A stretch of 64,000 nucleotides of DNA from Cyanidioschyzon merolae (GCA_000091205.1 AP006491.2); one strand, 5' to 3'; counted from the stretch's first letter, positions 3,581 through 54,217 are shown. The notes: generated from the letters alone by a model not told the origin. Made by a program: numbers and translations.

Positions 3581-4046
3581 GTGCAGACGCCTCCTATCCG
3601 GTTTTGACTGGACACCTCTTATCGGTTTCAGTTTTTCCTTGCAAACTTCGAGCCTCAGAGGCTGGCCCGCAAAACTTCGCTCGCTTCAGCTCCGCAGGGC
3701 TCGTCTTCAAGATCGGCACATCGCCTGATATTGATCGCAGCCTTAAAGCCTCGGTGTACGAGCTCCATGCGTTTATTGCCACTGGTTGCATACACCAATG
3801 CATGGAGTCCTCGAACTCGAACCCTGAGTGTCACTGCGGTCTCGTCATGGTCCCGTCGGGCACACACGGTTCCTCGCCTATCGCCCATCTTCTTCTTCAC
3901 CACGTGCTCTCCTTCGCTCGACAGTCGGTGAGGAGCGGATTTTTCCGTTTCTTGTCGAACCTCTGGATGGCAGGCCCCTGGGATCCTCGACTTCCACGTC
4001 CATACCATTCCCTTGAATTTTTTACGTCTTCAAATGAACGCACTTG
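3581..4046 (-). mobile_element. miniature Fanzor/TnpB-derived non-autonomous element, copy F1 (~466 bp)
   Basis: Minus-strand frame reads ..GNKRMELVHRGFKAAINIRRCADL.. (ORF 3655..4008), homologous to the C-terminus of the large element protein (KKRMEFVNRDFNAAINIRRCAV). 5' end cttcaaatgaacgcacttgg (4029-4048, rc ccaagtgcgttcatttgaag) matches the 5' terminus of copies A, C, F2 and F3. 3' end ...ggaggcgtctgcac (rc at 3581-3594) matches the shared right-end core. Flanks outside are unique. Confidence 0.7.
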
Positions 4047-4106
4047 GAACGAGTCTGCTGTACACCGTGAACAAGCATTTGTTTACACGCACCTGGGCGC
4101 GGCACG

Positions 4107-5240
4107 TCATTGACATGAAAGACCAAAAGAGATTCGACGCTCACCAGAGCAGACCCCTGACGAACTCGGTGGGTCGTCGGCTTGCGCCCGCTGGGTCGAA
4201 CGTTGACCAGTTAGCAAAGCAAGAGCCTGCTGCAGCTCCTTCACTGCGGTCTCGTCGTCGTCGAACTCTGCTGCGCTCAGCGCTGACCGCACATGTCGCC
4301 TAAAGGCGTGCCGCGTGCCCGCTGTGACCCCGTTCCCAGGCGAACCGAGCATATCATCTATGGATTCTCTGCGTTTCCTTTCCTGTGAGGTCTCATTCGG
4401 AGACTGCGCTGATAACGGCTGCAGCGAAGCCGGCGCCTGCCTCTCGCTGCCAGCCGCTCCGTCGAACGCTTCCTGGCTGCGGCTAGTGATGCACTGCTGG
4501 TGCGTCGACGTTGGAGGCGGGCTTTCATCGTCGTCCACAGACTGGGGCGAGGCATCAGATCCCTCCGGACTTACAACACCGGTACTGTTCTGTTTGCCAA
4601 GGCTCGAAGACGAGCCCTTGTCTGGCACCGGTGCAGTACGTACGCTTTGGGTGACTTCCACACACTCGACATTGTCTTGCGTTGACTCCCGAAGCGCTCT
4701 TCGAGTCATCACGCACTTGTATTGAGCATATCGAATCTGCTGGGAAAGCTGGTCCCAGAACTCAGCTGATACTGCTGCGCCAGTACCCCCAGTGCTTGTT
4801 TCCGAGTCCTCGCGCCCCCGGAACTGTTCCAGCGCTTGCAGGAAGATAGACGCGGCATAAAACTTCGCAGCTGTCTCTGGGGCGGGTTTTCGTGAGATGG
4901 ACTCCTTCTCAGCTCTTTCAAATATTCGCGACGCAAAGCGGTGCAAGTACTCCAGCGGAGTATGCCGAAAAATCGACGACCACTCCCTAGAGGAGAGGAT
5001 TCGTGCCTTCAATGCCTCCAGATCGTTCATTTCCTTTGAGAGAAAAGCAGCAATCCGCTTTTGTTCATTTGTATGGGTCAACTGCCGGCGAATGCCAAGG
5101 CCCTGCTCTACAGCATACAAACGAGTGAAGTACGAGACTACAGGTTCAATGTGGGCAACCTCGCGGCCCCGCGCAAAAAACGGGTACAGGCCCTGCAGCG
5201 CGTCAGGGACGTCTGCTATACCGTCGAGCTCGCTTTCCAT
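4107..5240 (-). CDS. VTA1: Vta1/LIP5-like protein (ESCRT-III/Vps4 cofactor family), tentative
   Basis: N-terminal region LYPFFARGREVAHIEPVVSYFTRLYAVEQGLGI...KEMNDLEALKARI resembles the Vta1 N-terminal domain (PVVAYYCRLYAMQTGMKI...LMDQLEALKKQL). A C-terminal ..AVKELQQALALLT resembles the Vta1 VSL tail. Start moved to the ATG at 5240-5238, because ORF-track residues 1-60 (from a TTG at 5420) are the 3' flank of Fanzor copy A. Confidence 0.5.
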   Translation of the reverse strand: MESELDGIADVPDALQGLYPFFARGREVAHIEPVVSYFTRLYAVEQGLGIRRQLTHTNEQKRIAAFLSKEMNDLEALKARILSSREWSSIFRHTPLEYLHRFASRIFERAEKESISRKPAPETAAKFYAASIFLQALEQFRGREDSETSTGGTGAAVSAEFWDQLSQQIRYAQYKCVMTRRALRESTQDNVECVEVTQSVRTAPVPDKGSSSSLGKQNSTGVVSPEGSDASPQSVDDDESPPPTSTHQQCITSRSQEAFDGAAGSERQAPASLQPLSAQSPNETSQERKRRESIDDMLGSPGNGVTAGTRHAFRRHVRSALSAAEFDDDETAVKELQQALALLTGQRSTQRAQADDPPSSSGVCSGERRISFGLSCQ

Positions 5241-5269
5241 GCTGCGACCACACTCCTGCAAACAAACGT

Positions 5270-7790
5270 CTTTCAAAACAAAAACGCTGTCGCCAGCGGT
5301 GTACCGTAGTGGCAGTGAACGCGCCCTAGACAAGGAGTCTCCAACTGACGTGCAGACGTCTCCCAGTTTTTTTCGACCGGCCACCTCATACAGGATACAA
5401 CTTTTTCTCATATAGTTCAACTTTCAGAGGTTGTCCAATAAAGTCCCTTCTTGTGGACTCTGGAGGTCTCGTCTCCAACACCGCACATCTCCTGATATTG
5501 ATAGCGGCGTTACAGTCTCGGTTCAAAAACTCCATACGTTTCTTGCCATTGATTGTACTTACGAATGGAAGTAGTCCCCGAACTTTCGCTCTCCTTTCCA
5601 TTTGTTCATCTGTCAGCGCTCTATACTTTTTTATATCCTCAGGGCTCCTCTGGAACTTTTCCATCTCGATCCTCTGGAGTGCACAGCCCAGTTCGTGGTG
5701 TGTGATTACGATGTCCGGAACTCATCTATCGGTATGGTCACGAAACCGTCTGCGCACTCCTTGCACGTTCTTGTCAACGGTGCTGGTATGCTCTCTCTTT
5801 GGGTCACCCGCCGTCCTGCTCCATACGTTACCACGAGCCTCTGACTCTTGTCCTCCTTGAGGATGCTCAACTCATTGAAAAAGCTGGTCAACGCATGCTC
5901 CCTTCCCACAATACAAGCTCAAACACAGACGAGCTCACGGAAGTTTGGTGTACGCTTTCCACAGCGCCTCGTCATGCGCAGCTTGAGTGTCCATGACCTC
6001 TGGAAAATCTTGAAAATCCGCATGTCGGATCGTCACCTCGCTCATAGCTTCCCTGTGATCCTTCATTCCTGCATTCCATGTCTCAATTTTCTTCCCTGCA
6101 TTCATGATTCCCGATTCTCGATAGTATCTCGCGCTCGAGAGCCTCAAAAGTCGCATATCTCTCTGACGTACTCTACCCTCAGTATCATCTTCCGCACGCT
6201 TGGGTACAGCGATGGTAATGATATTCGTGTTTCCGGGGTCCGCGCCGACGACAAAGTCGTTCTCCTGCACCTTGTTCGTCGTAGGACACGCCTTCTTGTT
6301 ATCTTCGTGCTCCGCCGACGGCGATATCGAGGACGAAACAGGACGAGCTGCCTTCAACTGCCGATCGTGAACACACTAGGATACTCCATCGGTTTCGATG
6401 ATGCCCGTGAATACCGTTTTCTTGCTCGTTTCGAGACGCTCGAAATCGAAGATATTCTTCCAGGGCTTCTCGTGGTTTTCACCGGTGAACCCTGTCTTCC
6501 TTACATCGAACCCCCGGACAGATCTCCTTCATGATGCCGTAGAGGACTCCGGCGTCGATCGTTCCAAAATCGAACTTGATGATGCATAATGGAACGACGT
6601 TGAAGCGCTTCCCCATTAGGGTCGCCCACCGCTTCAACGACTCTTCGTTTGCTTCCTCACCGTGCTCCATATCCGCCTCGGGATCGAGTTGTCGGTCCAG
6701 AAACACGAAATATCGCACGACGAGGCGATCGCATCTTTCCTTGATGTTTTTCAACTCTGATATCTTTTCTGCTGGATTCGGCATCCCCAGCACCGCACGG
6801 TGCTCTCCTATAACCGCACGGATGACAGAAGCTTCGTTCGTGCTCTCGTTCGACGCCTTCGCTCCGACGAATTCGATCTCATCTTCATTCTGACTATCGT
6901 TCGCGATGCCATTGATGCTGGCCTTTGTCGCTCTGCAAGACGGGCCCGCGTCCAGCGCAGACACGGCGCGTATCATGAAACGTTCGAGGTTCACGGTCAT
7001 GCGGTTCTTCAGGTTCTCGTGGTGCTTCATTGCCCCGTATTCGTAAATATCCGCGTCACCCTTGTATCGAGTACCGTTGGAGCGGTATTTCGCGAAGTTT
7101 TCGTGGAGGGCATACATTCGCGCATTTCTCCTCGACGTTTCCCGCGTGCCAATCACCAGATGACGAATACAGGTCTTGTCGAAAAATTCTTCCGGAACCT
7201 CGACTGTTTTGGTGTCCATCACGTCGCGATACATATCTCTCGCGATATGCATCAGTGCTACAGCAGCGTTACAAACACGCATAGAGTGCGACTCGAAACG
7301 GGGTCTGATGGCCTCTTGGAGCTTTTCCGTGTACGGATCCCTGATGTGTTTATGAAGACAGGCTTTCACCAGCATCTCGTGATATTATCGTCTTTCTCGC
7401 ATCCATCGACGTCGGGCCTCCCGCCGTAACTTCTCCTTCTTGTCTCGTTCCGCTTTGCTCGGCTCTGTTTTTCATTTTTCCCCGGCAGCCGGCAACACCA
7501 GGCCTCCAGGATCCTCCATTTCCATTACTTTCCATTTTTATGATAAGAATGCACTTTGAAAGCGTTTGCTATGAACCACGAAAAATCACTTGACCATAAT
7601 ACTGTAAGGGCTGAAACACGAATGAATCGCAAGACTATATTTTGCTATGACTTCAACGCAAATACACCTTTTTCCCGTAGAAAAACACGCTGCTGATCAG
7701 CATCGCGTTTCCTTTCAATGGCGGCATGCGCGTCGTTTCTCATGTCAACCAGATATGGTCATATGCTTGTGGACCGCGATGCGTAAAGGT
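5270..7790 (-). mobile_element. Fanzor (eukaryotic TnpB-like) element copy A, degraded; core 5350..7593 plus flanks shared with copy C
   Basis: Protein in ORFs 6479..7375, 5935..6357, 5706..5909, 5386..5664 (minus). Right-end core ctgggagacgtctgcac (rc at 5350-5364). 5'-end core tcaagtgatttttcg (rc at 7579-7593). About 190 nt upstream and ~85 nt downstream flank are ~80-85% identical to the flanks of copy C. Confidence 0.75.
5386..7375 (-). pseudogene. TnpB/Fanzor-like RuvC nuclease gene, disrupted (one frameshift near 6479, in-frame TAG near 6360, further frame breaks)
   Basis: Four ORF pieces in different frames. Motifs: [17 protein letters not shown] (RuvC-I-like), [54 protein letters not shown] (TnpB RuvC-III-like DxNAAxNI). 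Translating the minus strand across 6361-6480 gives [34 protein letters not shown] where copy C continues ..[14 protein letters not shown]..., i.e. TAG in place of ATG. Confidence 0.7.
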
Positions 7791-8529
7791 GTCCAGTTTG
7801 TGCATTACAGGAAAAGTCAATAACCGCGTTCTGTTTTATGTTCATCGCTCTCGTGTGCAGCGCAGTTGCGTTGCCTGTTCTCCGTCAAACAATGCTGGGC
7901 AGTGGACCGAACGCTTTTGTGCCGTCGACTGGTAGAAAAGGTTCGGAACGAGCTCGAGCAGCGGTTCTGGCTATAGCGCTTCAACGGATAGCTCTGCAAT
8001 GTCTGCATACGTTTCATCGAATGAGAGCACTGCCCCGCGGGACACGGCGCCGACGCTGGGTGGTGGTCTCTTCGCCGGCGTCCTGCCGAGTCCGAGTATG
8101 ATGCCCAGCCCCAGCATGACAGCCAGCCTAGGTGCTGGCGTTGTTATGATGACAGCCGGGTGAACTAGCATATGTTTGTGAGCAGGATTGCGACTCGCTT
8201 GAGTATTCGAGGCAATGCTCGGTCAAAATGCTCGCATCACGGTTCCCGTACTCATATCGATCTCACGTTCTTTGACCGGGAAATGGTACGGTACTGGTGT
8301 CAGCGGGCGCAGGAAGACCCACTCGTAGATTTTTATGGCGGCTCCAGTGACGTTCCAATCTCTGGACAATGTCATCATCACTAGCACGCCCGTGGGGACT
8401 GTATCACGGCAAGAAAACATGGAATGAAGAGGGAGCTTCCATGCGGAATCTGCTGTAAATGCTTTCCAGGTTTTCTAGCATCATCATTCAGCAGCATTCG
8501 CGCCAGGCTGAAAACCCTGTCCTTTACGT

Positions 8530-10092
8530 TCAACTGCCCAGAGATTGCGTTGATACCCGCTGCGGTGTATAGTAGAGAACGGCGCGCTCGTTCCGCGGTT
8601 GCAACGGGCGCACGTTTGGTTGGCCCCGCTGCGCTGCCAGGATGCGGTCCACAATTCGCTGTGGCAACGAGTCACGATGGGTCAACACAATCCACTTGAT
8701 GTTCTCGGAGCAAGGCGGGGTCGTCAGGCTGCCTCGGTAATAGAAGAAGCTGGGCCGTGCCTCAGGGTCCAGCTCCTCGGCGGCCAGCGCCACGCCTGAC
8801 TCGATTTCTCCGGCTGGCGATCGTGATGCCAATGAACGTGCAGTGCTTTCTCGCAAGAGCGTATCCGCAAAATTGAATTCCACGAAGCGTGTGGTTCTCA
8901 GTCTACCGGGCCGAGATGGTGCCGTTTGGCTGGTCGCTGTGCTCGATGGTGGTAGCGACGAGTTCGATGCATCGGCGACCAGAGACTCAACGGGGATACT
9001 GGCACGCGTAGCGCCGGCGGCTGCTGAGGTGTAGGTCAGCGAGGTCTCGCCATTCGTTGCGCCTGCATCCTTCTGTGCCGGAGGCTGACCAGCTGGTGCT
9101 TCATCCAGCAGTGAGAGCAGCTCATCAAGCCAGCGTGGAACCGGTGTATCAGGCGCGCCTACTGCCGCTGCGTCCGCACCGCTTCCGTCGCTCGCTGGGT
9201 TCGCCTCGGGAACCGCACGCCAGATGCGACCAATCACGGCAACATCGTTCTCATCCGCCACGTTCCGAAACACGGCGTGCATTTCGAGGTCACCACGGAA
9301 ACGTTCGATGACATGCTCGCTCTGAGGTGCGTGGAAGTGAATGTTCACCAGGCGGTACTGTTGCACTTGTGCGTCGCTGAGTTTGACTGGAGTCGGCGCC
9401 TCAGTTGCCGCGACCGATGTGCCATCGCCATCAGTCACCTTGGGGAGCTCTGGAGGGAGCTCTCGCAACGTCAAGGTCGCTGCTGGAAGCGGCGCTTCAA
9501 AGCCAGTGTCCTGTGGTAATTCACCGCCAACGGGCGGTGAAAGCGGAATATACTGCTCGAACGTCGCCGTCGGCGGGTGGATATCTAGTGGAGACGGCTC
9601 GAAGCGTTTCCACTGCGCAACTTGACTGGTTATGTCGAAGGGAGCGGCCGCAGTTGAGTATTCGAAACGCAACGCTTCTCGCTCCGAGAGCGCTATTGGC
9701 GACTGGAAACGTCCACAAGAGCACAGACGGTATGCATCAGCGAGACCACCCCACTTGGACGGCCCTCGCTCTGAACCGTAATCCCAGCAGAGGTTCTGGT
9801 TGGCTGCAGCAGCCTGCGGGCTCTGCACGTCAGGCACCTGCGCTTGCGTGTACGTTTGCATTGGACTAGCTCCGTCTTGGTTGCTCGGAGCGTTCACAGC
9901 ACCTGCCGATTGTGCAGTGTCGCACTGTGCGTGCACGAGTTCAGGTTTGCCTAGAAGAAGCGCCGTGGAAAGCAGCACTACGGCCGCTCCTCGATCCCGC
10001 GAGAGCGCTATTCGCAATAGTCTCTCGGAGCCGCTTCCGAAATGAGTTGTCTCTATGCAATGAAAGACAACGGCATGCGGCGATGCGTGCAC
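8530..10092 (-). CDS. alpha-carbonic anhydrase with N-terminal targeting-like extension (secretory or thylakoid-lumen type); start codon unresolved
   Basis: Alpha-CA signatures: NLCWDYG..GPSKWG, Zn ligands in VNIHFHAPQSEH and EMHAVF, YRGSLTTPPCSENIKWIVL, NVRPLQPRN. A Cys pair (NLCW / TPPC) is typical of disulfide-bearing extracytosolic alpha-CAs. Hydrophobic stretch AAVVLLSTALLLG then VHA-Q near the N-terminus. The ORF-track start at 10092 is GTG, and there is no in-frame ATG between it and the upstream stop at 10204-10206. Confidence 0.8.
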   Translation of the reverse strand: MHASPHAVVFHCIETTHFGSGSERLLRIALSRDRGAAVVLLSTALLLGKPELVHAQCDTAQSAGAVNAPSNQDGASPMQTYTQAQVPDVQSPQAAAANQNLCWDYGSERGPSKWGGLADAYRLCSCGRFQSPIALSEREALRFEYSTAAAPFDITSQVAQWKRFEPSPLDIHPPTATFEQYIPLSPPVGGELPQDTGFEAPLPAATLTLRELPPELPKVTDGDGTSVAATEAPTPVKLSDAQVQQYRLVNIHFHAPQSEHVIERFRGDLEMHAVFRNVADENDVAVIGRIWRAVPEANPASDGSGADAAAVGAPDTPVPRWLDELLSLLDEAPAGQPPAQKDAGATNGETSLTYTSAAAGATRASIPVESLVADASNSSLPPSSTATSQTAPSRPGRLRTTRFVEFNFADTLLRESTARSLASRSPAGEIESGVALAAEELDPEARPSFFYYRGSLTTPPCSENIKWIVLTHRDSLPQRIVDRILAAQRGQPNVRPLQPRNERAVLYYTPQRVSTQSLGS

Positions 10093-10967
10093 CGCGCGAG
10101 ACGCTACGCCGATCGACGAAGGACACGTGTCCGACGCCGCATTGGCACATGCGTGTTCGAACCTGCGTACTGCACTTGAAATCCGGTGTCCTATATCGGA
10201 AACTCACGTAGAATGCTCTCTTGCGCTAGGCGCTATCGCTGGTGTCGACGCTCCTGCCCATCTCAGTACCGCCCTGAAGCACAGTCGGTGTTGTGGCAGG
10301 CTTGGATCCCGATCATGCTTCCAGAAGACGCGTAGCGTTCGCAGCGGCGTTCGCTTGTGTGGATGAGGTATGCATCTCTCCACTCAACAGGAGTTTCGTT
10401 AGGTTTATTGATCGTAACCAAACTAGGCACGGTATGGCTCCTGAACTCGTATATACGTTTTTTGTGATGCTTGTAATGCATGCCGCACGGACGCTGCAAT
10501 GAGGAACTGATTTGAATTGTGCTTCTATCCGGCGTTATGCACTGTCGACAATGACATTGCTTATCGTTGGCATGCTGTCGTCGTGGTCAAAGTTATGATG
10601 GCCGCTACGTCCCCCGGATCCGGTGATCTTGCTAGAGGCATCGCGCATGCGGCGTCTAAATGTACCTTGACGTCTGAGCCTCGCATTTCGCCTGGCACGA
10701 TCGAGGCACATGACAAAATCACATACTGTATTCTGCTCTACTCTATCCGTTTACTGCCAATGGCGTTACTTATATGTAGTGGTGGAATCGCCAAACCGTA
10801 AACTTTCACGTACCACCGCCCGTTCCATATGCTCCCGGATACTCAGTGGCTACCCGTTGATTTTCCACTCGCATTAATCATATCGCGGAGCGTATGGATT
10901 TTCTTTCTTTTACTGCTCAACGGAGCCGAAAAGTTCATCGACCAAGAAGAGTATACATATCTACAAC

Positions 10968-11450
10968 GCGCAGACGCCTCCCAGCGGTTCTTTTTTAACT
11001 GACCACCTACTATCGACTTCAGCTTTTCCTTGTAAACTTTGAACCTGAGAGGCTGCCCCGCAAAGCTCGATCGCGTCAGCTCCTCGGACCTCGCCTCCAG
11101 CAACGCACATCATCTGATATTGATGGTTGCGTTAAAGTCTCGGTTCGCGAACTCCATGCTTTTGCTGCTTCTGGATGAACTCACCATTACGAGGATTGCT
11201 ATAGTTTGCGACCTCTGTATCACTCCAGTCTCGTCATCGCTCCGTCGTACAAACACGTTTTCTCGCCTATCTCCCATGTTCTTCCTCTTCCCTATGTGCT
11301 CCGTCACTTGCTCCTCTTCGCTCGATAGTCGGCGAGAAGAGGAGTTTTCGTTTTTCTCCGGCACTCGGCGATGACAACGCTCCAGGATCCTCGATTTGCA
11401 TATCCATATCATTCCCTTGGATTCCATATTTCTTCACCTGAACGCTTCTG
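10968..11450 (-). mobile_element. miniature Fanzor/TnpB-derived non-autonomous element, copy F2 (~483 bp)
   Basis: Minus-strand frames read ..KSMEFANRDFNATINIR (ORF 11110..11427) and ..FAGQPLRFKVYKEKLKSIVGGQLKKNRW (ORF 10843..11103), homologous to the last ~130 aa of the large-element protein. 5' end cagaagcgttcaggtgaag (rc at 11432-11450). Right-end core gggaggcgtctgcgc (rc at 10968-10982). Same internal-deletion architecture as F1, F3 and F4. Confidence 0.7.
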
Positions 11451-11694
11451 CTACGCACCGCGAACCAGCGTTTCATGACACGCACACGCGTGGGGAACTT
11501 CATGGAGGTGAAAGCCTCGACAAGCATTGTCCAATTTCATGCTGCATTGTACATATGCCGTTTTATACAGTTTCCGAATGCCACTGCTGGCTGCGCGCGC
11601 GCAGGCATCCAGCGAGCGATGCGTCGTGGCGTCCTACGAACGCATCCATGCGACTCGTCTCGCAACTGCGTTTCACGACGAAGGCTCAAACGCA

Positions 11695-12154: not shown

Positions 12155-12185
<31 letters not shown>

Positions 12186-14367: not shown

Positions 14368-14465
14368 ATGCAACGAGACCCGGATACGAGAATCCGGGCT
14401 GGAGCACAAGTCGAGAAATTTCGATCCTTCTACGCGCCCTTCGTGCGAAACTGTAAGGCACTCGC
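14368..14465 (-). repeat. ~100-nt dispersed motif ending in a hairpin, copy H1 (inverted relative to H2 at 19089..19197)
   Basis: The reverse complement (agtggcgagtgccttacagtttcgcacgaagggcgcgtagaaggatcgaaatttctcgacttgtgctccagcccggattctcgtatccgggtctcgttgcatc) aligns at ~65-70% with 19089-19197. It ends in the hairpin cggattctcgtatccg. Confidence 0.45.
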
Positions 14466-32463: not shown

Positions 32464-32856
32464 GGTGCACGAGGGAGAGGTTCCTGGTGTTCTCTCTGCA
32501 CTCAGGACACCAGCATGGTGCAGCTAGATCCTGTTGCTGGTGAAGCGTGCCACGAGCAGCGCACCGTTCAAGCGCAGCGTGCTCGATGCGAAAGCACTGG
32601 TAGCTCGCTGGGCGTGTCGGTCGTCCCAGTCGTAGCGTTTTCGCGCACCAGCGGATGAGTTGCAGTGAAGGAGTAGAGCGGCATAGGGTCGAGGCCAGCG
32701 GGTACGTCGAAGCTGTCCCAGTACGAATAGTCCATAAAAGTATAGCATCCAATCAACCCTCCGTTCGCCTGAAGCGTACCATGTCCGTTGCTACCCTCTG
32801 TCTTCCGTTTCGATGGTACTCCATCCCCAGGTATCGGTAACCAAATGCTTTTTCGC

Positions 32857-33171
32857 GGTTTATAGAAGAAGCGTTCCGAGCGCGTTGATTTTGAGAAATA
32901 AAGAATCTGAGGGAAAAGTATGAAGGCGTGGATTTCGGGTACCCGGTGTCGTCAGGCGCCGGAAATAAACGAACAAAACATCGTATTGCTGCCGACAATC
33001 GAGCGATGAAGAGCAATTGACGAAAAATAGAAGACGGTTGGAGATAGGGGAGAAAAGGTGTTTGTAAGACGGGACGATGACGAGAGTGTAGTGGTTCAGA
33101 AGGGCACGAATGCGAGGAATCCTTGCAGCAGTGCATTCAACAAGAGGCAACAAACGCAAGGAGTTTGTGAA
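32857..33171 (+). mobile_element. miniature Fanzor-derived element copy F4, 3'-truncated at a tail-to-tail junction with copy B
   Basis: 5' end agaagaagcgttccgagcgcgttgattttgag matches the mini/full 5' terminus. The internal sequence aligns with F3 across the mini-specific deletion junction (...ataggggagaaaaggtgtttgtaagacgggacgatgacgagag...). The sense frame reads RRARMRGILAAVHSTRGNKRKEFVN and then stops matching at 33171. Confidence 0.6.
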
Positions 33172-35165
33172 CTCGTGGCCTTCTTGCCATTTCCTTTTCG
33201 GTTAGCGCTACGTGCTTTCCTATCTCCCAAGCGGGTCGCTGGCAATTTCCCATCTCGATCCTCTGGAGTTTACAGCCCAGTTCGTGGTGTGTGATTACGA
33301 TGTCCGGAACTCATCTATCGGTATGGTCACGAAACCGTCTGCGCACTCCTTGCACGTTCTTGTCGACGGTGCTGGTATGCTCTCTCTTTGGGTCACCCGC
33401 CGTCCTGCTCCATACGTTACCACGAGCCTCTGACTCTTGTCCTCCTTGAGGACGCTCAACTCATTGAAAAAGCTGGTCAACGCATGCTCCCTTCCCACAA
33501 TACAAGCTCAAACACAGACGAGCTCACGGAAGTTTGGTGTACGCTTTCCACAGCGCCTCGTCATGCGCAGCTTGAGTGTCCATGACCTCTGGAAAATCTT
33601 GAAAATCCGCATGTCGGATCGTCACCTCGCTCATAGCTTCCCTGTGATCCTTCATTCCTGCATTCCATGTCTCAATTTTCTTCCCTGCATTCATGATTCC
33701 CGATTCTCGATAGTATCTCGCGCTCGAGAGCCTCAAAAGTCGCATATCTCTCTGACGTACTCTACCCTCAGTATCATCTTCCGCACGCTTGGGTACAGCG
33801 ATGGTAATGATGTTCGTGTTGCCGGGGTCCGCGCCGACGACAAAGTCGTTCTCCTGCACCTTGTTCGTCGTAGGACACGCCTTCTTGTTATCTTCGTGCT
33901 CCGCCGACGGCGATATCGAGGACGAAACAGGACGAGCTGCCTTCAACTGCCGATCGTGAACACACTAGGATACTCCATCGGTTTCGATGATGCCCGTGAA
34001 TACCGTTTTCTTGCTCGTTTCGAGACGCTCGAAATCGAAGATATTCTTCCAGGGCTTCTCGCGGTTTTCACCGGTGAACCCTGTCTTCCTTACATCGAAC
34101 CCCCGGACAGATCTCCTTCATGATGCCGTAGAGGACTCCGGCGTCGATCGTTCCAAAATCGAACTTGATGATGCATAATGGAACGACGTTGAAGCGCTTC
34201 CCCATTAGGGTCGCCCACCGTTTCAACGACTCTTCGTTTGCTTCCACACCGTGCTCCATATCCGCCTCGGGATCGAGTTGTCGGTCCAGAAACACGAAAT
34301 ATCGCACGACGAGGCGATCGTGTCTTTCCTTGATGTTTTTCAACTCTGATATCTTTTCTGCTGGATTCGGCATCCCCAGCACCGCACGGTGCTCTCCTAT
34401 AACCGCACGGATGACAGAAGCTTCGCTCGTGCTCTCGTTCGACGCCTTCGCTCCGACGAATTCGATCTCATCTTCATTCTGACTATCGTTCGCGATGCCA
34501 TTGATGATGGCCTTTGTCGCTCTGCAAGAGGGGCCCGCGTCCAGCGCAGACACGGCGCGTATCATGAAATGTTCGAGGTTCACGGTCATGCGGTTCTTCA
34601 GGTTCTCGTGGTGCTTCATTGCCCCGTATTCGTAAATATCCGCGTCACCCTTGTATCGAGTACCGTTGGAGCGGTATTTCGCGAAGTTTTCGTGGAGGGC
34701 ATACATTCGCGCATTTCTCCTCGACGTTTCCCGCGTGCCAATCATCAGATGACGAATACAGGTCTTGTCGAAAAATTCTTCCGGAACCTCGACTGTTTTG
34801 GTGTCCATCACGTCGCGATACATATCTCTCGCGATATGCATCAGTGCTACAGCAGCGAAAAGAACACGCATAGAGTGCGACTCGAAACGGGGTCTGATGG
34901 CGTCTCGCAACTTCTGCCTACGTGGATCCTCGATATGTTTGAGAAGACAGGCTTTCACCAGCATCTCGTGGTACTGTCGTCTTTCGTGCAGCTTTTGACG
35001 TAGGGCCTCGCCCTTTTGCTTCTTCGTCCTGTTTCGTTCCTATCCCATTAGCACTGTTTGTCGTTTTTCTCCGCCTGCCGGTAGCAAGGGCCCTTCAGGA
35101 TCCCCGACTTGCACCCGCATAGCTTTGCTTTGGCGTTTTTATTTCGTCAAAACGACCGCACGTCT
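33168..35165 (-). mobile_element. Fanzor element copy B, 3'-truncated; body ~99% identical to copy A, 5' end of a different sub-lineage
   Basis: 33245-34985 is near-identical to 5660-7400 (only a few aa differences in the paired ORFs). The 5'-UTR part 34985-35165 is only ~70% similar to A. 5' terminus aaaaagacgtgcggtcg (rc at 35154-35170) aligns with the F3 terminus. The 3' part ends at 33168-33180 (sense ..MARRPRV), ~45 nt upstream of the RuvC-III codons. Confidence 0.7.
33170..34964 (-). pseudogene. TnpB/Fanzor-like nuclease gene, truncated and carrying the same frame lesions as copy A
   Basis: ORFs 34068..34964, 33524..33946, 33295..33498 plus the MGNCQRPAWEIGKHVALTEKEMARRPRV piece mirror the ORF pieces of copy A, including the same TAG and frameshift. 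Confidence 0.7.
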
Positions 35166-36160
35166 TTTTGGCCTTAGATGAGGGCTTTCTCGGAGGGAGC
35201 GTGGCTTTCGCAAGAAAAACGACATGTGCCCCGATGTGTTACCGAGTAATGAACGCTCAGCGTTTCGCCCGGGGGAGCGATCATCACGTTTCACGATAGA
35301 AAACACTCCTACAATGCGCTTGAACCACGGAGCGCACAGACGAACAAAAATCACCCCTACCCCGATAGAATCGGCAAAAAGCTCGAACGCAAGCGATATG
35401 GTGATATGCCACGTTGCCCAATAGAAGGACGTCGCCAGACGTCCGGTAAAAGTCTTCAATGCTTGGACAAATTGGTTGGTGCTGTTGCATGTGTCTTTTC
35501 TACAAGTGAAACTGAGGCCACCAAATAAATCTTCTAAAGCTATAATAGATGATGATTTCGTCGTTCTCTTCGAGCTCGATCGAACGTACAACGGGCGTCC
35601 TTCACCTCGAATACCCATTGACGCTCCGAGCGTGCCTTGCGAAGCAAGTTTCATCAACTGAACAAACAAACTGACGATCCGGTGGTTCCTATCGATCGTG
35701 ACGTTCCAGGGACTCTGTTATTGCGATTTGGATGGAAGATGCCATTGCTTGAACGATGACTCTTTTTGAGATTGTATCCCAGTGTTTTCAGGATCATAGG
35801 CGCGACTTGGTGAGAAACAGAGACGCCTGTGGCGACTATGATCGTCGCTGTTGCTTTCCGAAAATGGTGATCAACGGATCGTTTTCTAAGATCGACTGCA
35901 AGCGACCTCTATGAATATCGATCTCTGGCACGGAGTGCATCTACATTTTTCTTATAGTTTTCGCCAACCATCTGAGTACGTCGGTATGACTGTCCTAAAC
36001 GAGGAATGCAGTCCTCCTTGGACTGTTCAGAAATGAATGTAAATGCTACATGCAAATCATCTACGATCTACACTATGCATTGCATTGCGATTTCGATCTC
36101 CTAGACATCGCAGCGGAAGTGAAACAGAATTTAGTACAAAGACTACAAGAACGGAAACCT
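35166..36160 (-). repeat. ~1-kb repeat S, copy 1, directly abutting the 5' end of Fanzor copy B
   Basis: Its reverse complement aligns block by block (~75-85%, with indels) to 52740-53753. Example: aagaaaaatgtagatgcactccgtgccagagatcgatattcatagaggtcgcttgcagtcgatcttagaaaacgatccgttgatcacc versus aagaaacaagtagatgcgctctgtgtcagaaattggtattcttaaagatcgcttgaagtcgatagtagaaaacgacctgttcagc. No conserved long ORF. Confidence 0.55.
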
Positions 36161-38739: not shown

Positions 38740-40349
38740 TAGCCAGAGTTATAAACAAAAACGAACCTACAAGTTGAACTCGTAGAAGAACGCAAACGTT
38801 CACACACAACACGAACAAGCAACTCGCCTTGTGATCGTCGACGATGGACGGCAGCGTGCTCGCGATGCAGGGCTTCGGGGGCGCGCGGCGTTGGACGCTA
38901 CCGCCGCCGATGGCGACGCTATAGACGCTGCCGCGTTTTCGCTCGATGTGCCTGCGCTGGAAAAAAGGAACGCTGCTATCGCTTTGAGAGACAGCAACAT
39001 CTGGGTATCACTGTGGTAAATGAAGGCCAGCCACTTACTTTGAGTGTAGTACTAGCAACGAATGGTCCCGTAGCTGAGCCCCAGTGCTCGCGAGTGGCCA
39101 GTGAACTCATACTCTACCTTCTAGGTGGAAGGTCCAGTGAACGAGATGCGCACACGGGACCAGTGTTACGCGCACCTACTCACTGGTGGGTGGCAAGCAC
39201 AAGCCCGAGTCGCCAACCGAGGGCGACGCTTTCCGTGTACGATCACGCAGGAGAGAGGCGGCTCCCAGGATTCATCGTAACAGCCAAGTTTCTCCAACGT
39301 GTTGTGCAGCGAAAGCAAGTTTTGCATCCGCAGGCTGTCCGAGCGCAAACTGACGACGAGACCCGATTCTTTGTCGAGTGAAGCACGCCTCGAGCAGACG
39401 CCGTCTGTGGTACGGCAACGCCGTTCTGTTTCTGTGCTACGACAGCACCGGCGCTACAAGCGCTATTGAGGCGGATGTTCACGGGCAGGCACTCGGCGCC
39501 CGATAGCACGTCTGAAACGCCAGTACATCCGAGACGAAGTATGGATTATGAAACTTGGACGTAAGGCGTGGAATGACGAAAGTTTCACCGCGCGCAGGCT
39601 CCAAGCGCACAGAGTCGCGGCACGCTCGCCTGTGTGAGAAGTTTTCACATGGAACAAAATCCGCTGCCTTTGCTGTTGCCGCTGATTGTTCTCCAATGAC
39701 AAAACATTTACATGGTATTTGGATTCCAGATAGCGAGATGGATAGGTACTGGTGATCGAAAAAGTGTCCATCGTGATGCACTCTACCTCCATGCCCCATT
39801 ACTTATACTTACTTTCGGATGTACTGATCGTTTTGTGCGTTCTGTAGTGCGCCGAGTGCCTGCTTTGAGCAACCGCCTTAGCGCCTAAACTGCTGAAGCA
39901 GATACTGCACGGAGATAGAACGGCGTTGCCATACCACTGAGGGCGCCGGATCGATGAACGCTTCACCTGATACAGCGTTGGAATGCACAATAATTCTGGG
40001 AGCCTGTAGGCTAAACAGACACAACTACTGCCTGCGAAAGCGCGAACCGATATATTAGGAGTCTACTGCGATCCGGGCGACGACCAAACACAGCATCCCG
40101 CGTCTAGTCCCAGAATGAACTGCGTTGCGGACGAGCTGCTCAGGTCTCGCCACAGCGCCCGCTACTGGGGGGAGCACGAAGCACGAGTCTGGGAGACTCG
40201 TCCTGCTCGCGGGACTTTTCGCCTAGAGGGAGGATTCTTCAGAATATGGAAACCTTTTTCCCCGTTTTCAAAGTTTATCGTAGAACGGGAGAGAAATTGC
40301 TGTATCGTTGCTCGCTAGTCGTGAGTCTCTCTTCTTTGTTCTACATAGT

Positions 40350-42945
40350 GCTGTCGATTTGCGCACCAGGGAGATCTGTCAGTTTCGAGTCACGACGCGT
40401 ATGCTGCCGTTGAAGGGAAACGCGATCCTGATCAATAGCGTGCTGCTCTAATGTGCAAGTTGTACTTGCGTTAAAGACGTAGCAAAGTACAGTTCTTCAG
40501 TTCATTTGTGTCTCAAACCTCAAACAAGTGTATTCAACTGTTTTTTCGCAGTATATAACTGAAGCGTTCAAAGTCCGTTACAAAAGATAAAAAAGGAAAG
40601 TTATGGAAAAGGAAGTGGAGGATCCTGGAGGCCCAGTGTGGCTGGCCGCCAGAAAAAAAAACAAAAAAATAGTGCCGAGTCCAGAAGAAAACGAAGCGAG
40701 AAAGAAGCAAAATGGGGGCCCTACGTCGAAGGCTGCAAGAAAGACGTCTGTACAACGAGACGGTGGTGAAAGCCTGTCTTCGTAAACATACCAAGGATCC
40801 GTACAAGGCAAAGTTGCGAGGCGCTATCAGAAACCGTGTCGGGTTGTAATCCATAACGATTATAAAGGGGTCGTCAGTACGAATGCATTTGGCGAGGGAG
40901 ATGTACGAAGACGTGACGCACGTGGAAACAGTCGAGGTTCTGGTCGAGTTTTTCGACAAGACCTCTATTCGTCACCTGATGCTTGGTACGGGGGAATCGT
41001 CGACAAAGAAAGAGCTAGTGCATGCCCTCCACGAAAACTTCGCAGAATTCCGCTTCGAGGGAACTCGATACAAGGGTGACGGAAATATTTACACATGCGG
41101 GGTGATGAAGTACATCACGAACCTGAGGAACCATTTGACTATGAACCCGGAGCGTTTCATGATACGCACCGTCTTTGCGCTGTACTCGGGCCTGTCTCGC
41201 AAAGGAGTATGGGCGATTACCAATGGCATCACGAACGATCGCAAGCATGATGAGATCGAATTCGTCGACAGGAAGGCGTCACGCAGGAGAAGGTTTAAAA
41301 CTTCTGTCATCCGTGCGGTTATACAAGAGCACCGCGCAGTCTTGGGGTTGGCGAATTCAATAGAAAACATATCAGAGTTGGAAAAAGATAAGGAAAGATA
41401 CGATCGCCTCATTCTGCGCTATTTAGTGTTCTTAGACCGAGAACTCGAACGCAAGGCAGAGGTGAAGCTGAGTGAGGAAAAAATGAAGAGTGGAGGAGAC
41501 GGAAGGCTGACCTAATGGGGAAGCGCTTTAACGGCGTTCCGTTGTGCAACACCAAGTCACATTTCGTGAGTATCGACTCCAGACTCTTTTACGGCATCAC
41601 GAAGGAGATCAGTCCCGACTTCAATGTTAGCAGGGAGGACTTCACCGGCGAAAACCGGGAGACGTGCGGTAAGAAAAGTATCTTCTATTTCAAACGTCTG
41701 AAAGTGAGCAAACAAAAGATATTCACTGGGATGATCGAAACCGATGGAGTAGCCATGTGTGCACACTATCGGCGCTTGACGACAGATCGTCCAGTTCCGC
41801 CCGTGACGAAGCATGAAGAGAAGAAGGATGCGGGTCCTGCGATGCAGGAGGTGGAGGATAACGACCTGGTCGTTGACGCGACGAAGCATGAAGATAACAA
41901 CAAGGCGGCTCCTGCGACGCAGAAAGTGCAAGATATCGACTTTGTCGTTGGCGCGGACCCCGGAAACACAAATATCATCACCATCGCAGCACCGAAGTGT
42001 GCGGAAGATGGTACTGACGGTAGTTTACGTCAGAAAGACATGCGTCTATTGAGGTTCTCGAGAGCTAGATACTACCGAGAATCGGGAATCATGAATGCGG
42101 GGAAGAAAATCGAGAGCTGGAATTCAGGAATGAAGGATCACCTAGAAGCTTTGAGCGAGGTGACGAGCCGCGGAGCCGACATTGAAGCTTTTCGGGAGTC
42201 CATGGAAGGTCCGCGTTGCTCATTGGGATACGCTGTGGGAAGAGTACACCAAGCGCCGGTGGGCTCGTCTGCGTAAGAATCTGTATTGTGGTAAGCAACG
42301 TGCATTTGCCAACTTTTTCAATGCGTTGAGCGCCCTCAAGGAGAATGAAAGTCAGAGGCTCGTCGTAGCGTACGGAGCAGAGCGCTGGGCGTCCAAAAAA
42401 GGGACTACACCAGCTCCGTCGACAAGAACGTACAAGGAGTGCGCACGGCGTTTCGCTACGATACCTGTAGACGAGTTCCGAACATCGTATACACACCACG
42501 AACTGGGGTGTACGCATCACAGAGTGGAGATGGAAACGTGCCAGAGGAGTCCTGAGGATATAAAAAAATACGGAGCGCTGATGGAGGGGCAAATGGAAAG
42601 GAGGGCGAAATTTAGCGGATTGCTTGCATTAGTAAGTACACTCAATGATGGCAAGAAACGGATGGAATTCGTGAACAGAGACTTTCACGCAGTGATCAAT
42701 GTAAGATGTGCGGTAATGGAGAAAAGGCCTCGATACTGGACACGAGAGAACTTTGTTGGACAACCTCTCAAAGTGGAACTATATAAGAAAAAGCTGGAAG
42801 CAGTAATGGGTGGCCGGTCCAAAAAAACTGGGAGGCGTCAGCACATCAGTTAGAGACGATTTGTCTAGGGCGCGTTCGCCGCCACTGCTGAACACCGTCG
42901 GCGTCGTTCGACTTTTGCAAAGTGTTCGGTATCGGTGTCGGTGAC
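40350..42945 (+). mobile_element. Fanzor (eukaryotic TnpB-like) element copy C, degraded; core 40524..42844 plus flanks shared with copy A
   Basis: 5' terminus caaacaagtgtattc (40521-40535). 5' leader with ggaggatcctggaggcc. Right-end core gggaggcgtcagcac (42830-42844), followed by atcagttagagacgatttgtctagggcgcgttcgcc, which matches copy A downstream. Confidence 0.75.
40711..42853 (+). pseudogene. TnpB/Fanzor-like RuvC nuclease gene, disrupted by an in-frame stop near 40790 and frameshifts near 41515 and 42200
   Basis: ORFs 40883..41515, 41515..42276, 42182..42853 are homologous along their length to the copy A pieces. Motifs: [48 protein letters not shown] then HHELGCTHHRVEMETC, KKRMEFVNRDFHAVINVRCAVM. 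N-terminus MGALRRRLQERRLYNETVVKACLRKH then stop. Confidence 0.7.
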
Positions 42946-45068: not shown

Positions 45069-45214
45069 CATAGGTAATGTAACTTGGAAGTCGGGGATTT
45101 GATGGATACCTCACCGTGCACTGAAAAAAAACACACAAAAAAAGTCAGAAAAGAAAAAGCGCACCATCGGAGAACGCCGGCCTAAGCAAACGTCTCGTCC
45201 GTGGAAGCGAAATC
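45069..45214 (+). repeat. ~145-bp dispersed repeat R, copy 1 (A-rich core)
   Basis: ataggtaatgtaacttggaagtcggggatttgatggatacctcaccgtgcactgaaaaaaaacacacaaaaaaagtcagaaaagaaaaagcgcaccatcggagaacgccgg... aligns at ~80% with 51165-51306 in the same orientation. Flanks are unrelated. Confidence 0.5.
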
Positions 45215-50509: not shown

Positions 50510-51164
50510 AATAAGCACAAGCAACCTAGAAATAACGAATAACGGCTCTCTTACAGGCACCGTCACGAGTTGTATGGCACCACTTGTCGAGGCGGTACCT
50601 GCGCAGCGCGCCCGCCATACCACTCCCACTCGACGACCGTACCAGCGCACGACGGTGCCATCGGTCAGCCCGTACCGTTCACCGTATCGAAGCTATTCAT
50701 ATCCATTCAAACCGGCGGCTTACCTTCCTATGCATCCCAGCGCTTCATATCTCTGCAAGTGTCAGTTTTAGCGACCGGTTGTCACATGCAGAAATTTTGC
50801 AAAGCACCTTTGGCGTCATGTAGATGCAGCGGCGGCGGCGGCGGCGGTGGTAATGCATGCACGCATCTGCGTGTCCGCTACGTGTGCAGCGCATCGCGAT
50901 GCGTGCGATCGGAGACGCAGGCGCGCGCGCCCCGTGCGGATCGGTGCGAAGGGTCGCGATCTGGCGACGCACAGCATCGCCGCTGCGCTGCGCGTTTGCA
51001 TCGGGTGCTGATCCTCGAGCCGACGCCCTCTGTGGTATAGAAAAGCTGTTCTTGCTCAATGAAGTATCTGCTCCAGCGGCTAAGTTCCCAAGGCGGATGA
51101 TTAGGTTAGGTACTAGGCACACACGACAGGACGTACGAAACGACCAGAATATCCGAGAAGAAGT

Positions 51165-51306
51165 ATAGGTAATGGAACTTGGAGGTAGGGCGTTTGATAG
51201 ATACTCCACCTCGCACTGAAAAAATAACACAAAAAAGTTTGAAAAGAAAAATGCGCATCATCGGAGAACGCTGGCACAAGTAAACGTTTTGTCCATGAAA
51301 AACATC
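51165..51306 (+). repeat. ~145-bp dispersed repeat R, copy 2
   Basis: ataggtaatggaacttggaggtagggcgtttgatagatactccacctcgcactgaaaaaataacacaaaaaagtttgaaaagaaaaatgcgcatcatcggagaacgctgg... See copy 1. Confidence 0.5.
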
Positions 51307-52739
51307 CGGTGCTGATGCGCGTCGCCACGTGCGCCAATGCATGCATGCGGGCGCCGCGGGAGGCTCTCGCCAGGCTCGGGAGCGCGCCCCCATGTGTCAG
51401 GTGTTGGCGCTGATCGGATCGAGTCACCGGCGTATGCGTGGGTGCGTGCGTGTGCGTGTCTGTATGTGGATGAGTATGGAGGTTGCAGATGGTGCCGCTT
51501 GCTGCCGATGAAGCATTCGCTGGAATATCCTTGTGGCGTCGTTGCAGCTGACGTGTTATTTTCGCTACTTATCAGTTAGCGCACGGCAGCGTAGAACGTG
51601 GTCATTTTGGCGTTCGAGAGCCCGCTCGAAGCGGTGTACAGGAAGCGCAGTTGAGCTTGTGAGACGGGAACGTCTATGTTAGTCCAATGTTGCTGACCTG
51701 GTTGTCGTTCTGGATGCGGTTGTGCTGTGCGGGAAGCGCTTCGTGCCATTGCCGGCTCATCCCGAATTCGGCTGGGACCGGTGCGTGGTACGTGGATGTA
51801 TGCTTTGCATGCCATCAAGACTGAAGGATTTCGCACTTGCCATCTCCTGTCGAGGCTTTTTTAGGTCGTCTGCAACCAGCTGAACGTTGACTGTGTGTAG
51901 GCGTCTCAGCGCGGATGGTTTTTTTTGATCCGTTATGCGCAATCTCATGGCCAAGTTGTTCGGGCGCTGGGCAGGCGCCGACACATCAGCGTGTCCAGCA
52001 TGGGGACAGGCGCCTGGAGCAGGTTCGCCATCCGATTGGTCACCCGTTGGACTGCTGCACCCTATGGTTTCTACAGGAAGATGAATCCAGGGCTGAATGA
52101 ACGTAGAGTCCATCGAAGCTGACCAGCGGTCTCTCGCCCGACTTCAGACTCCAATCCTGTATCCGAAGATAATATCTGGATCGATGGAGCGATCTTGCAG
52201 CCTCGGAAAACTCAGCGCAGACCGTGAACACTCGCGGTATACCTGCATTGCCCCGCAGCAGCATGCGCATCCCGCGCTCGGGCAGTGCAAATGAAGTAGA
52301 CTCGGTATTCAGTGGGAACATGGTTGTCGCCAGACATTTGTGCAACGCCGCCCGTATGCATACCTGGACGGTAGGATTGCCCGAGCAGTTTCCGTCGCAG
52401 GAAGCGTGCGAGGCATACGTGCAGCGTGGCTGGACAGGGTCCCGGGCGGGCGGCCTCTGCTGCAGGGTGAGTCTGGAACGACGCTTCTCGTAACGCTCAA
52501 GCGCATCGTGCTGTCGATTCGCGTCAGGGATCAGACGATCGCATGAAGCATATGAACAGTGGGAGTCTTGGAAGCGTTTGTGGGCGCACGACCTCCGAAT
52601 TGAGCCCTGCTGCTGCTATCCTTTGTATTGAACGCTGTACTGTCCGGGATTTCAGGCCTTTTTCGTGCGCCGCGTCATGTGCTGGGTGTAGCCGTGCGCG
52701 ACGCGTACGCGGCGGTCCTGACGCGCTGCAGCACTACGA

Positions 52740-53753
52740 GGTTAGAGGCGCTCGACTTTATTGTGTTTCACTTTCGCTGCGTCGATGCGAATGGTACTGC
52801 GCATTGCGTAGGAGGAGATCGAATTCACGATGCAGTGTACCGTATAGATTGTGGACGCATCGCCTATAGGATATATATACTTGTCTGAGCAATGCACGGA
52901 GGACCGCATTCTTCATTTAGGTCAGTCATACCATACTAGTCAGATTGATGAGGAACACTGAAAGAAACAAGTAGATGCGCTCTGTGTCAGAAATTGGTAT
53001 TCTTAAAGATCGCTTGAAGTCGATAGTAGAAAACGACCTGTTCAGCAAGTCATGAAGAGCAAAAGCGACAATAATAGCCATCATGGGCGTCTCTGTTTCT
53101 CAACTGCTCTTTCGTGTCGTCCTGTAAACACTGGGATACAGTCGCAAAAAGCGAGTCCAGTTACATGTACGACCATCTTCCACCGAAATCGCAACTAGCA
53201 CAGAGTCTCTGGAACTCAGCGATCGGTACGAGGCACCGCATCGTCTGTTTGTTTCTCCAGTGGATGAGACTTGTTTCGGAAGGCACGGTCGGAGTGTATA
53301 ACGATATTCCCGGAGAAGGGAGCCCGTTGTACGTACGATCCAAGTCGAAGAGAACGACCACATCATCATTTGTTCTGGATGGAGTGGATTCATGTGTTGG
53401 CATCCGTTTCACTCGAACAGGAGGCGCATACAACAGCATCAATCGCTTTGCTGAATGATTGAAGACGTTTCCCTGACACCTGGCGAGGTCCTTCTATTCG
53501 ACAACGTGGCACTTCACCATTCCCTTTGCGGTCGAGCTTTTTTCTCTTCTATCTGGTAGAACTGCTTTTCATTCCTCCGTACGCTGCATGATTCAATCCC
53601 ATCGAATAAGTGTTTTTCTATCGTGAAACGTAGTGATCGCTCCAGTGGGCGAATCCCTGAAGAGTGTTTACCACGGTGACAAAATGAGGAACGTTTCGTC
53701 TTTCTTCCGCAAGCCCTTCTCGCTCAGGGAAGGTCCTCACCTAATGCCATAAA
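52740..53753 (+). repeat. ~1-kb repeat S, copy 2, directly abutting the 5' end of mini element F3
   Basis: Aligns with the reverse complement of 35166-36160 over its whole length and continues seamlessly into the F3 5' terminus (..cctcacctaatgccataaacaagtgcgttcg..), exactly as S copy 1 continues into copy B. Confidence 0.55.
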
Positions 53754-54217
53754 CAAGTGCGTTCGTTTTTGAAGGACAAAAACCCAAGGGAAAGGCATGC
53801 ACATGTTAGTCAGGGATCCTGGCGGGTCGATGTCGCGGGCTACCAGGAAAAACGACAAAATTCTCTTCTCGCCTACCATCGAGCGAAGATGCGCAAGTAT
53901 CCGAGAAGAATAGGGGATATAGGCAATGAAACGTACTTGCCCGAAAGTATGACGACGAGACTGCAGTGGCACAGAGGGCACGAATTCGAGGACTCCTTTC
54001 ATCGGTGAGTTCCACCAGCGGCAATAAACGCATGGAGTTCGTGAACCGAGACTTTAACACCGCCATCAATATCAGACGATGTGTGGTGCTGAAAATTAGG
54101 ACCGACCGGCTGACGAGAGCGAATCTCCTGGGCTAGCCCCTCAGATTCGAAGTGCACACGGCGAAGCTGCAGCCGAGAGCAGGCGACCGGTTCGAAAAGG
54201 CTGGTGACGCGTCTGCG
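53754..54217 (+). mobile_element. miniature Fanzor/TnpB-derived non-autonomous element, copy F3 (~464 bp)
   Basis: 5' end caagtgcgttcgtttttgaaggacaaaaacccaagggaaaggcatg...cagggatcctggcggg. Sense frame: LARKYDDETAVAQRARIRGLLSSVSSTSGNKRMEFVNRDFNTAINIRRCVVLKIRTDRLTRANLLG*. Right-end core gctggtgacgcgtctgcgt (54199-54217). The ORF body between the 5' leader and the last ~95 codons is absent. Confidence 0.7.

Follow-up and report, generated by a model that had tools for sequence, protein, structure and literature searches.

Internally deleted Fanzor1 elements of Cyanidioschyzon merolae as probable relics of a DNA transposon lineage related to CMe-1A

Part of chromosome 9 (CMI genes) of the red alga Cyanidioschyzon merolae 10D, whose genome is compact and intron-poor, was analysed as one stretch of 64,000 nucleotides, referred to here as the window. 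Six of its reading frames match annotated 10D proteins exactly. It contains four short elements, F1 to F4 (the 'minis'), which join the beginning of an open reading frame (ORF) for the nuclease Fanzor1 to its end, together with longer Fanzor1 copies of the published CMe-1A family. The mini family is real, of single origin, old and apparently inert, and its members are probably relics of deletion derivatives that arose from a Fanzor1-carrying DNA transposon lineage, related to CMe-1A, and were amplified in ancient times. The original prediction for this DNA had presented the minis as cassettes for the Fanzor guide RNA (omega-RNA), a reading that is unsupported by the analyses described below.

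The evidence for a single family comes from 13 loci. A metagenome collection was scanned with a pattern from the mini-specific leader, and the 31 stretches obtained were reduced by hidden Markov model (HMM) mapping and clustering to 12 distinct loci, the four of the window and eight new ones; a 13th (L053) was added after the pattern scan. Because 3 of the 13 loci do not match the scan pattern, the family is larger than the recovered set. Many metagenome contigs are ~99% identical to the window. That the minis are one propagated family, and not products of independent decay, was correctly foreseen: the loci have unrelated flanks, an identical junction, shared derived substitutions, a leader segment specific to minis and a tail of their own.

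Six of the loci (F1, F2, F4, M7, M8 and M11) are type I, in which ~80 nt upstream of 'AAGTGCGTTC' ("aagtgcgttc") constitute the whole left end and the element measures ~0.6 kb. The other seven (F3, M1, M3, M5, M9, M10 and L053) are type II, in which ~850 nt lie between the left end and 'AAGTGCGTTC', as they likewise do in the longer copy B. The four window minis were found at the places and on the strands claimed for them, with boundaries known to about +/-15 nt:

F1, 3530..4121, minus strand: type I mini (~0.6 kb), with the left end at 4121-~4047, the leader and ~55 codons to 3840, the last ~85 codons at 3839-3575 and a tail to ~3530.
F2, 10912..11514, minus strand: type I mini without one copy of the GCGTTC..GCGTTC duplication and with a 15-nt leader insertion; orthologues in L020, L030 and L039.
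F3, 52742..54272, plus strand: whole type II element (~1.5 kb), with the left end and DDE_3 gene X at 52742-53717, the deleted Fanzor at 53754-54224 and a tail to ~54272.
F4, 32812..33176, plus strand: type I mini, 3'-truncated within the retained 3' part of the ORF; m5 match at 32808-33085, m3 positions 3-95 at 33088-33182.

Here m5 and m3 denote HMMs of the 5' and 3' parts of the mini, and X the transposase insert in the 5' part. F1 gave nhmmer matches to m5 and m3 at 4120-3840 and 3839-3575 (right boundary +/-15 nt) and has orthologues in four metagenome contigs. F3, matched by the X HMM at 52742-53717, shares 73% identity over 1055 nt with the flank of copy B and is present in 10/10 population contigs that span it. 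All four window minis occupy orthologous sites in the ~99%-identical metagenome strains. The last codons and stop of a Vta1-like ORF (4107-5420, minus strand) lie inside the left end of F1, at 4107-4121, and this reading frame seems to owe its end to the F1 insertion. Two oddities were seen elsewhere: one and the same mini (cluster M1) stands at the two ends of a 4.3-kb metagenome contig (L034), inverted relative to each other (1-361 and 3952-4310), through either inverted duplication or faulty assembly, and the tail of mini M3 in L046 (~3545-3500) has a (CA)n-rich insertion of ~22 nt directly after the GTCTGG core.

The minis are homologous to one another (69-71% identity over 458-479 nt, BLAST E 1e-47 to 1e-63; nhmmer E 1e-65 to 1e-83), and alignment confirmed that they are colinear across one shared deletion junction. 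In each, the 5' leader and the first ~55 codons of the Fanzor ORF are followed by its last ~85 codons, and the mini consensus maps to nt 869-1070 (75% identity) and ~2833-3088 (78%) of the published CMe-1A consensus. The 5' part had been thought to end at about the ORF start; in fact ~55 N-terminal codons of the published 734-aa protein are retained. The ~1.8-kb deletion removed codons ~55-650, and its junction is identical in 13/13 loci. A stretch of ~25 nt aligns to both breakpoints ('..GACGAG..(A/G)TGG'), as would be expected after one deletion by slippage or microhomology. As anticipated, no mini has an intact ORF, stops and frameshifts being found in the copies, and variability at the three codon positions (0.31/0.30/0.34) displays no coding bias.

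Three longer copies, originally counted as full copies, are indeed present in the window, but all are pseudogenes carrying frameshifts and stops, and B is truncated:

A, 5245..7779, minus strand: CMe-1A-type Fanzor1 pseudogene with the ~95-nt tail but no TE-N2-like 5' module, starting, like five others, at position ~663 of Y, the HMM for CMe-1A 5' sequence.
B, 33180..36143, minus strand: left end, DDE_3 pseudogene (36143-35202) and Fanzor1 pseudogene, 3'-truncated at 33180.
C, 39685..42945, plus strand: complete CMe-1A-type copy, with TE-N2-like ~650 bp, leader, Fanzor1 pseudogene with two frameshifts and ~95-nt tail.

Outside the window, ~120 kb around nine further Fanzor copies was examined, and comparisons of full-copy tails and folds were made on 11 copies, namely A, C and these nine. 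F4 (plus) and B (minus), each cut inside the 3' part of the ORF, meet 3'-to-3' at 33172-33182, and the same arrangement is seen in L017 and L036; two inverted elements seem to have undergone a deletion or a palindromic rearrangement here.

The termini of the minis lie further out than had been supposed. Upstream of 'caagtgcgttc', which had been named as the 5' terminus, F1, F2 and F4 have ~75-95 nt more of shared sequence, and F3 has ~950 nt more in common with copy B and six other loci. In the end alignment the ~80 nt upstream of 'AAGTGCGTTC' proved common to all forms, that is type I, type II, B and the CMe-1A copies. On the right, 'ggnggcgtctgcnc' ("ggcgtctgc") had been taken for the shared end. 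The minis continue beyond it for ~50-65 nt in a common, looser tail (..GGGTATTAATTTACCCT..ATGGTCGTAGAACATTTTTTGTT..CTGA), whereas 11/11 full copies continue in another tail, ~95 nt beyond 'GGCGTCTGCAC' (..GTTGGAGACGTTTTGTCTAGGGCGCG..GCCGCCACTACTGTACACCG.TGGCGACGTTCGACTTTCGAACGGCGTT). An HMM of the full-copy tail gave no match in the flanks of F1-F3 even at E <= 100 (nhmmer --max), and an alignment of the two tails by eye was unconvincing. The right end of B, the only full copy that bears a transposase, is truncated. No terminal inverted repeat (TIR) was found in F3, where an inverted-repeat search over the element returned chance-level pairs only, none of them terminal, or was evident in the end alignments, a test weakened by the age of the copies and the +/-15-nt boundaries. 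A search for CAGT-like TIRs and TA duplications gave only a possible 5-nt TCAGT/ACTGA match in some copies and no consistent TA flanks. Separately, ~20 T-rich nt are alike in direct orientation at type II left ends (e.g. L031 ~4125-4105, GAACTCAGTTTTGTTTCAAC) and right ends (e.g. L016 ~7085-7105, GAACGTTTTTTGTTTTACTG), which could be chance or a real terminal direct repeat.

Taken by module, the elements come in four forms: (a) copy B, with left end, DDE_3 transposase gene and Fanzor1; (b) type II, with left end, transposase, internally deleted Fanzor and the ~50-65-nt tail (~1.5 kb); (c) type I, with left end, deleted Fanzor and tail (~0.6 kb); and (d) A, C and the nine others, which are Fanzor-only CMe-1A copies with extra 5' sequence and the different ~95-nt tail. 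Six CMe-1A copies begin at one point ~165 nt upstream of the common left end, and random 5' truncation of full copies was rejected on account of this shared start. In four copies that start is preceded by the TE-N2-like ~650 bp, and TE-N2-like fragments also occur solo. Solo or fragmentary modules resembling TE-N2_CMe were seen at 58260-58622, 39346-39582 and 51008-51193 (all minus strand) and in L045 at 7197-7828; in L045, L028 and L042 a ~640-bp TE-N2_CMe-like copy abuts a shortened tail of mini M5. An unassigned pair of 137-bp direct repeats with 82% identity lies at 45070-45206 and 51165-51300, the second adjoining a TE-N2-like fragment.

The consensus of X, translated across frameshifts, matches Pfam DDE_3 (E 1e-17, 64.8 bits, cut-off 28.6) and, weakly, HTH_Tnp_Tc3_2. 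Its database relatives are ~300-aa IS630/Tc1-like transposases with PF13358 (DDE_3) and PF01498 (HTH_Tnp_Tc3_2). All X copies seen are pseudogenes, the longest ORF being 234 aa. Because X matches DDE_3, F3, which had been described as a ~470-bp non-autonomous miniature, makes up the 3' part of a ~1.5-kb element which formerly coded for its own transposase, now decayed. That the F3/B 'flank' might be a homing target or a host locus in duplicate was considered and rejected, since the ~930 bp recurs at seven other loci and encodes a transposase. A remnant of a DDE_3 (IS630/Tc1-mariner-like) transposase is thus tied to the CMe-1 lineage, whose transposable-element class was published as unknown.

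In the shared 3' 250 nt, identity is 78-86% between full copies, 71-72% between minis and 63-67% between minis and full copies. Leader positions ~172-272 are conserved among minis and not alignable to full copies by nhmmer; at the protein level this segment is still recognisable as the N-terminal basic region. These identities, together with the leader segment, indicate that the minis are a separate, older, single-origin lineage and not recent products of local full copies. Minis are not generally close to full copies elsewhere, none being present in the ~120 kb around the nine other full copies. Minis lie 15-20% from their consensus in the body and 18-51% in the tail. A retrocopy of a spliced, polyadenylated transcript was considered and rejected: there is no poly(A) and the junction lacks GT..AG.

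A history compatible with these data would begin with a single deletion in a lineage already distinct from present CMe-1A. The deleted element would then have spread by transposition, type II through its own or a sister copy's transposase and type I in trans, and the 2x2 combinations of modules may have arisen through a second deletion or through recombination at the GCGTTC repeat. The copies would since have decayed neutrally, to 15-20% from consensus, and would now be fixed and inert in present populations, with the last ~85 codons kept as a by-product of where one deletion fell.

Four observations weigh against this history. The TIRs and TA duplications expected of IS630/Tc1-mariner elements were not found, which leaves the mobilising chemistry unestablished. 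Among 12 full copies there is none with the mini-type leader and tail, as the presumed parent should have. The mini consensus has one open frame of ~170 codons across the junction, so that a short protein product of a master copy is possible. Finally, the body is better conserved than the tail, which uniform neutral decay does not predict; this contrast could reflect poor alignment of the tail, tail subfamilies, gene conversion of the body or past constraint on the ORF-derived part.

Active minis might have expressed a guide scaffold from their 3' part for use in trans by full-copy Fanzor1, an idea for which published ORF-less guide-RNA loci (the ghost Spu-1 loci and the PATEs discussed below) provide an established analogy. 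In Guillardia the guide-RNA region overlaps 17 codons, and its CMe-1A counterpart comprises the 95-nt tail together with the final ~45 nt of the ORF. The consensus 3' end of the full copies folds at -55.9 kcal/mol (z = -2.9, 2/200 shuffles as good), with a 14-bp stem between ORF end and tail, GCAGTAGTAGGTGGC/GCCGCCACTACTGT. Over the 11 copies 82% of cells are paired, and nine pairs have changed on both sides vs 3.4 in shuffles (0/500), for a structure that was itself derived from the consensus; RNAalifold on the same copies gave a weak structure with an unfavourable covariation term. The full-copy 3' end is a fair candidate omega-RNA on these folding data, and could equally be a DNA-level end structure.

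The minis retain the 5' strand of the 14-bp stem and lack the tail, and with it the only 3' fold that has statistical support. The fold and covariation checks suggested with the original prediction gave no signal: the 3' end of the mini consensus has z = -0.1, like shuffles, and RNAalifold on 11 minis (368 columns) returned -13 kcal/mol and an unfavourable covariation term of +1.2. Ten mini tails folded as DNA displayed no hairpin excess (z -2.3 to +1.3, mean about 0), and an Rfam scan of the whole window gave no match. Thus no test that was run supports the minis as omega-RNA cassettes. Since a single deletion lies behind all minis, the fact that they retain the ORF tail does not indicate that it was needed. 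The supposed dependence on a full-length copy in trans conflates two things, since Fanzor is not a transposase and half of the family (type II, including F3) has its own decayed DDE_3 gene.

A guide-RNA role of the ghost-locus kind is accordingly lowered, and only lowered, because covariation among dead copies is a weak test, mutations after insertion having no need to preserve structure. Besides the analogy, it has on its side the similar size of the minis, ends that are similar to and yet distinct from those of Fanzor copies, the position of the best conserved mini blocks within the ORF-derived 3' part, and the existence of intact Fanzor1 in the lineage (the 752-aa protein P0001 and, according to PMC3627910, some CMe-1A copies). 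Beyond the missing fold, it is opposed by the right-end tail, the site of SpuFz1 omega-RNAs, which is least conserved in minis and most conserved in ghost loci, and by the density of segregating sites in F3 (26 per kb in the mini and 35 in X, against 15-27 in intergenic and 5-13 in coding DNA), which indicates that F3 evolves neutrally today. Such cassettes are considered unlikely, and so is the kind of role that they might have had, for example cutting of vacated or empty sites that promotes retention or copying of minis. It is quite unlikely, in turn, that an amplified IS630/Tc1-mariner-like DDE transposon kept the deleted Fanzor as a guide-RNA scaffold for CMe-1A Fanzor1. Were this true, a eukaryotic DDE transposon and its transposase-less ~0.6-kb derivative would have exploited RNA-guided cutting in trans, as a red-algal counterpart of the fungal ghost loci built from coding sequence.

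The minis lie in short intergenic regions beside genes (F1 after the Vta1-like gene, F2 before that for MGDG synthase, F3 before that for an MCM-binding protein), where they might have been domesticated to serve the host, for instance as promoters or non-coding RNA genes. The fixation of all four window minis in every sampled strain and the stop codon of the Vta1-like ORF inside F1 are in keeping with this idea, but a polymorphism density in F3 at least that of other intergenic DNA, differences of 28-30% between copies with frequent indels, and the lack of a structure signal make it very improbable. Scarcely credible is recurrent, independent deletion between the two similar ~25-nt stretches, with the minis as parallel products of decay in situ: the similarity at both breakpoints and the homologous 5' flank of B (full) and F3 (deleted) would suit it, but the minis are closer to each other than to any full copy, they share an nhmmer-unalignable leader segment and a tail found in no full copy, and the B/F3 'flank' is a part of the element that recurs at seven other loci. 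Relics of an amplified deletion derivative remain the preferred account of the family.

The longer copies encode Fanzor1, as pseudogenes, on the following sequence evidence. A, B, C and P0001 all have the RuvC-like motifs GADPGNTN, (V/I)DEFRTS and NRDFNAAINI in TnpB order, which PMC3627910 defines as D-x(125-275)-[TS][TS]-...-RD; the C4 zinc finger is degenerate (HH..C..C). Homologues come almost exclusively from hot-spring metagenomes, the intact P0001 among them. A profile of 41 diverse relatives, from 2139 in a representative library, matches the solved Fanzor1 structures of Parasitella parasitica (9cf0, E 1.2e-22), Spizellomyces punctatus (8gkh, 1.1e-14) and Guillardia theta (9cer, 1.4e-10). 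Only this broad profile succeeded: the Protein Data Bank (PDB) gave no match to phmmer with a single sequence or to a narrow profile, Pfam gave no match for the ORF pieces of the window or P0001, and an AlphaFold2 model built with 46 homologues (mean pLDDT 38) was of too low quality to be searched for similar folds.

Identity between A and B reaches 94.7% over 1.9 kb (5591-7514 vs 33180-35103), vs 73-79% for A and C and 73-86% for other full pairs. B is therefore chimeric, as its body from 35103 on is 94.7% identical to A and its upstream part is F3-like, which suggests that a type II element and an A-like copy recombined, or underwent gene conversion, fairly recently. The linker before RuvC-I contains a tandem repeat of 75 bp (25 codons) (copy C 41805-41955, P0001 residues ~395-470), of which C has two copies, P0001 about four and the published consensus fewer. 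An upstream conserved ATG (MEKEVEDPGG..) is out of frame with the Fanzor ORF across an A-rich tract in C (40603-40790) and in the otherwise intact L001 (~9925-10010), whereas the published consensus protein has it in frame; homopolymer error, frameshifting or a different true start could account for the difference. In L047 a reverse-transcriptase (RVT_1) ORF (814-2710, minus strand) lies 1.4 kb upstream of a Fanzor copy and marks a retroelement within this repeat-rich neighbourhood. The neighbouring genes of the window encode a Vta1-like protein, carbonic anhydrase, MGDG synthase, a RACK1-like WD40 protein, an MCM-binding protein and PsbO.

Overall, the minis themselves look like old, neutral relics, and the useful results are modest: the DDE_3 link of the CMe-1 lineage, a tidy series of module losses and the full-copy 3' fold as a candidate omega-RNA. 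If the minis had carried working guide RNAs, the ghost-locus phenomenon, described in a chytrid fungus, would include a red alga as well. The 16.5-Mb genome of C. merolae is fully finished and homologous recombination is efficient in it, so that the alga is a suitable host for genetic tests of the natural role of Fanzor.

The concept of an ORF-less guide-RNA locus is already published. In Spizellomyces punctatus, 134 ORF-less 'ghost' Spu-1 loci of ~550 nt were described, whose 75-nt omega-RNAs work with SpuFz1 (Saito 2023, Nature 620:660, PMC10432273). Ghosts and minis are both short, ORF-less relatives of Fanzor1 elements, present in many copies per genome, with ends similar to and distinct from those of the Fanzor elements; the minis, like the ghosts, have no Fanzor ORF, since ~1.8 kb of it is deleted and what is left is disrupted in the copies of the window. 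However, ghosts have 30-nt inverted repeats, of which none were seen in minis, and a right-end omega-RNA region strongly conserved and like that of the Fanzor loci, whereas the mini tail is non-homologous to that of full copies and the least conserved part. Ghosts are expressed and were shown to guide SpuFz1. The Fanzor-derived part of the minis is coding sequence (63-67% identical to full copies). PATEs, derivatives of IS200/IS605, 'often encode omega-RNAs' that are used in trans (Meers 2023, PMC10055086). They too are protein-less and would need a nuclease and a transposase encoded elsewhere, but they are prokaryotic, are moved as single strands by the Y1 HUH enzyme TnpA and have subterminal hairpins, whereas minis have no hairpin excess in the tail and an associated remnant of a DDE_3 enzyme; no HUH gene was seen in any locus.

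The Fanzor family of the full copies is likewise published. Bao & Jurka (2013, Mob DNA 4:12, PMC3627910; Repbase) give ~150 copies of CMe-1A, ~80% identical to a 3169-bp consensus, without TIRs or target-site duplications and of unknown class, and treat the 5' 635 bp as a separate repeat, TE-N2_CMe. A and C are colinear with that consensus, the TE-N2-like 5' ~650 bp being included in C, and as published no TIRs or target-site duplications are seen. The minis differ in having another 3' tail; of the consensus they lack ~775 nt at the beginning and 81 nt at the end, and the DDE_3 remnant of copy B and half of the minis is absent from it. Full copies and TE-N2_CMe are described in the available text, which makes no mention of an internally deleted family; judged by that paper, and leaving aside Repbase entries such as TE-N1_CMe, the family may be new. 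The same paper reports Mariner/Tc1-type elements with captured Fanzor1, PUl-1 and PUl-2 of Pythium ultimum, with 24-33-bp TIRs and TA duplications. Such TIRs and duplications are not detectable here, and the transposase copies are all pseudogenes. The arrangement of a DDE transposase gene followed by Fanzor1 on the same strand of one element is nevertheless the same in copy B and, with a deleted Fanzor, in type II. The DDE_3 link of the lineage may itself be new, and it fits the capture of Fanzor1 by Mariner-type elements that Bao & Jurka observed elsewhere.

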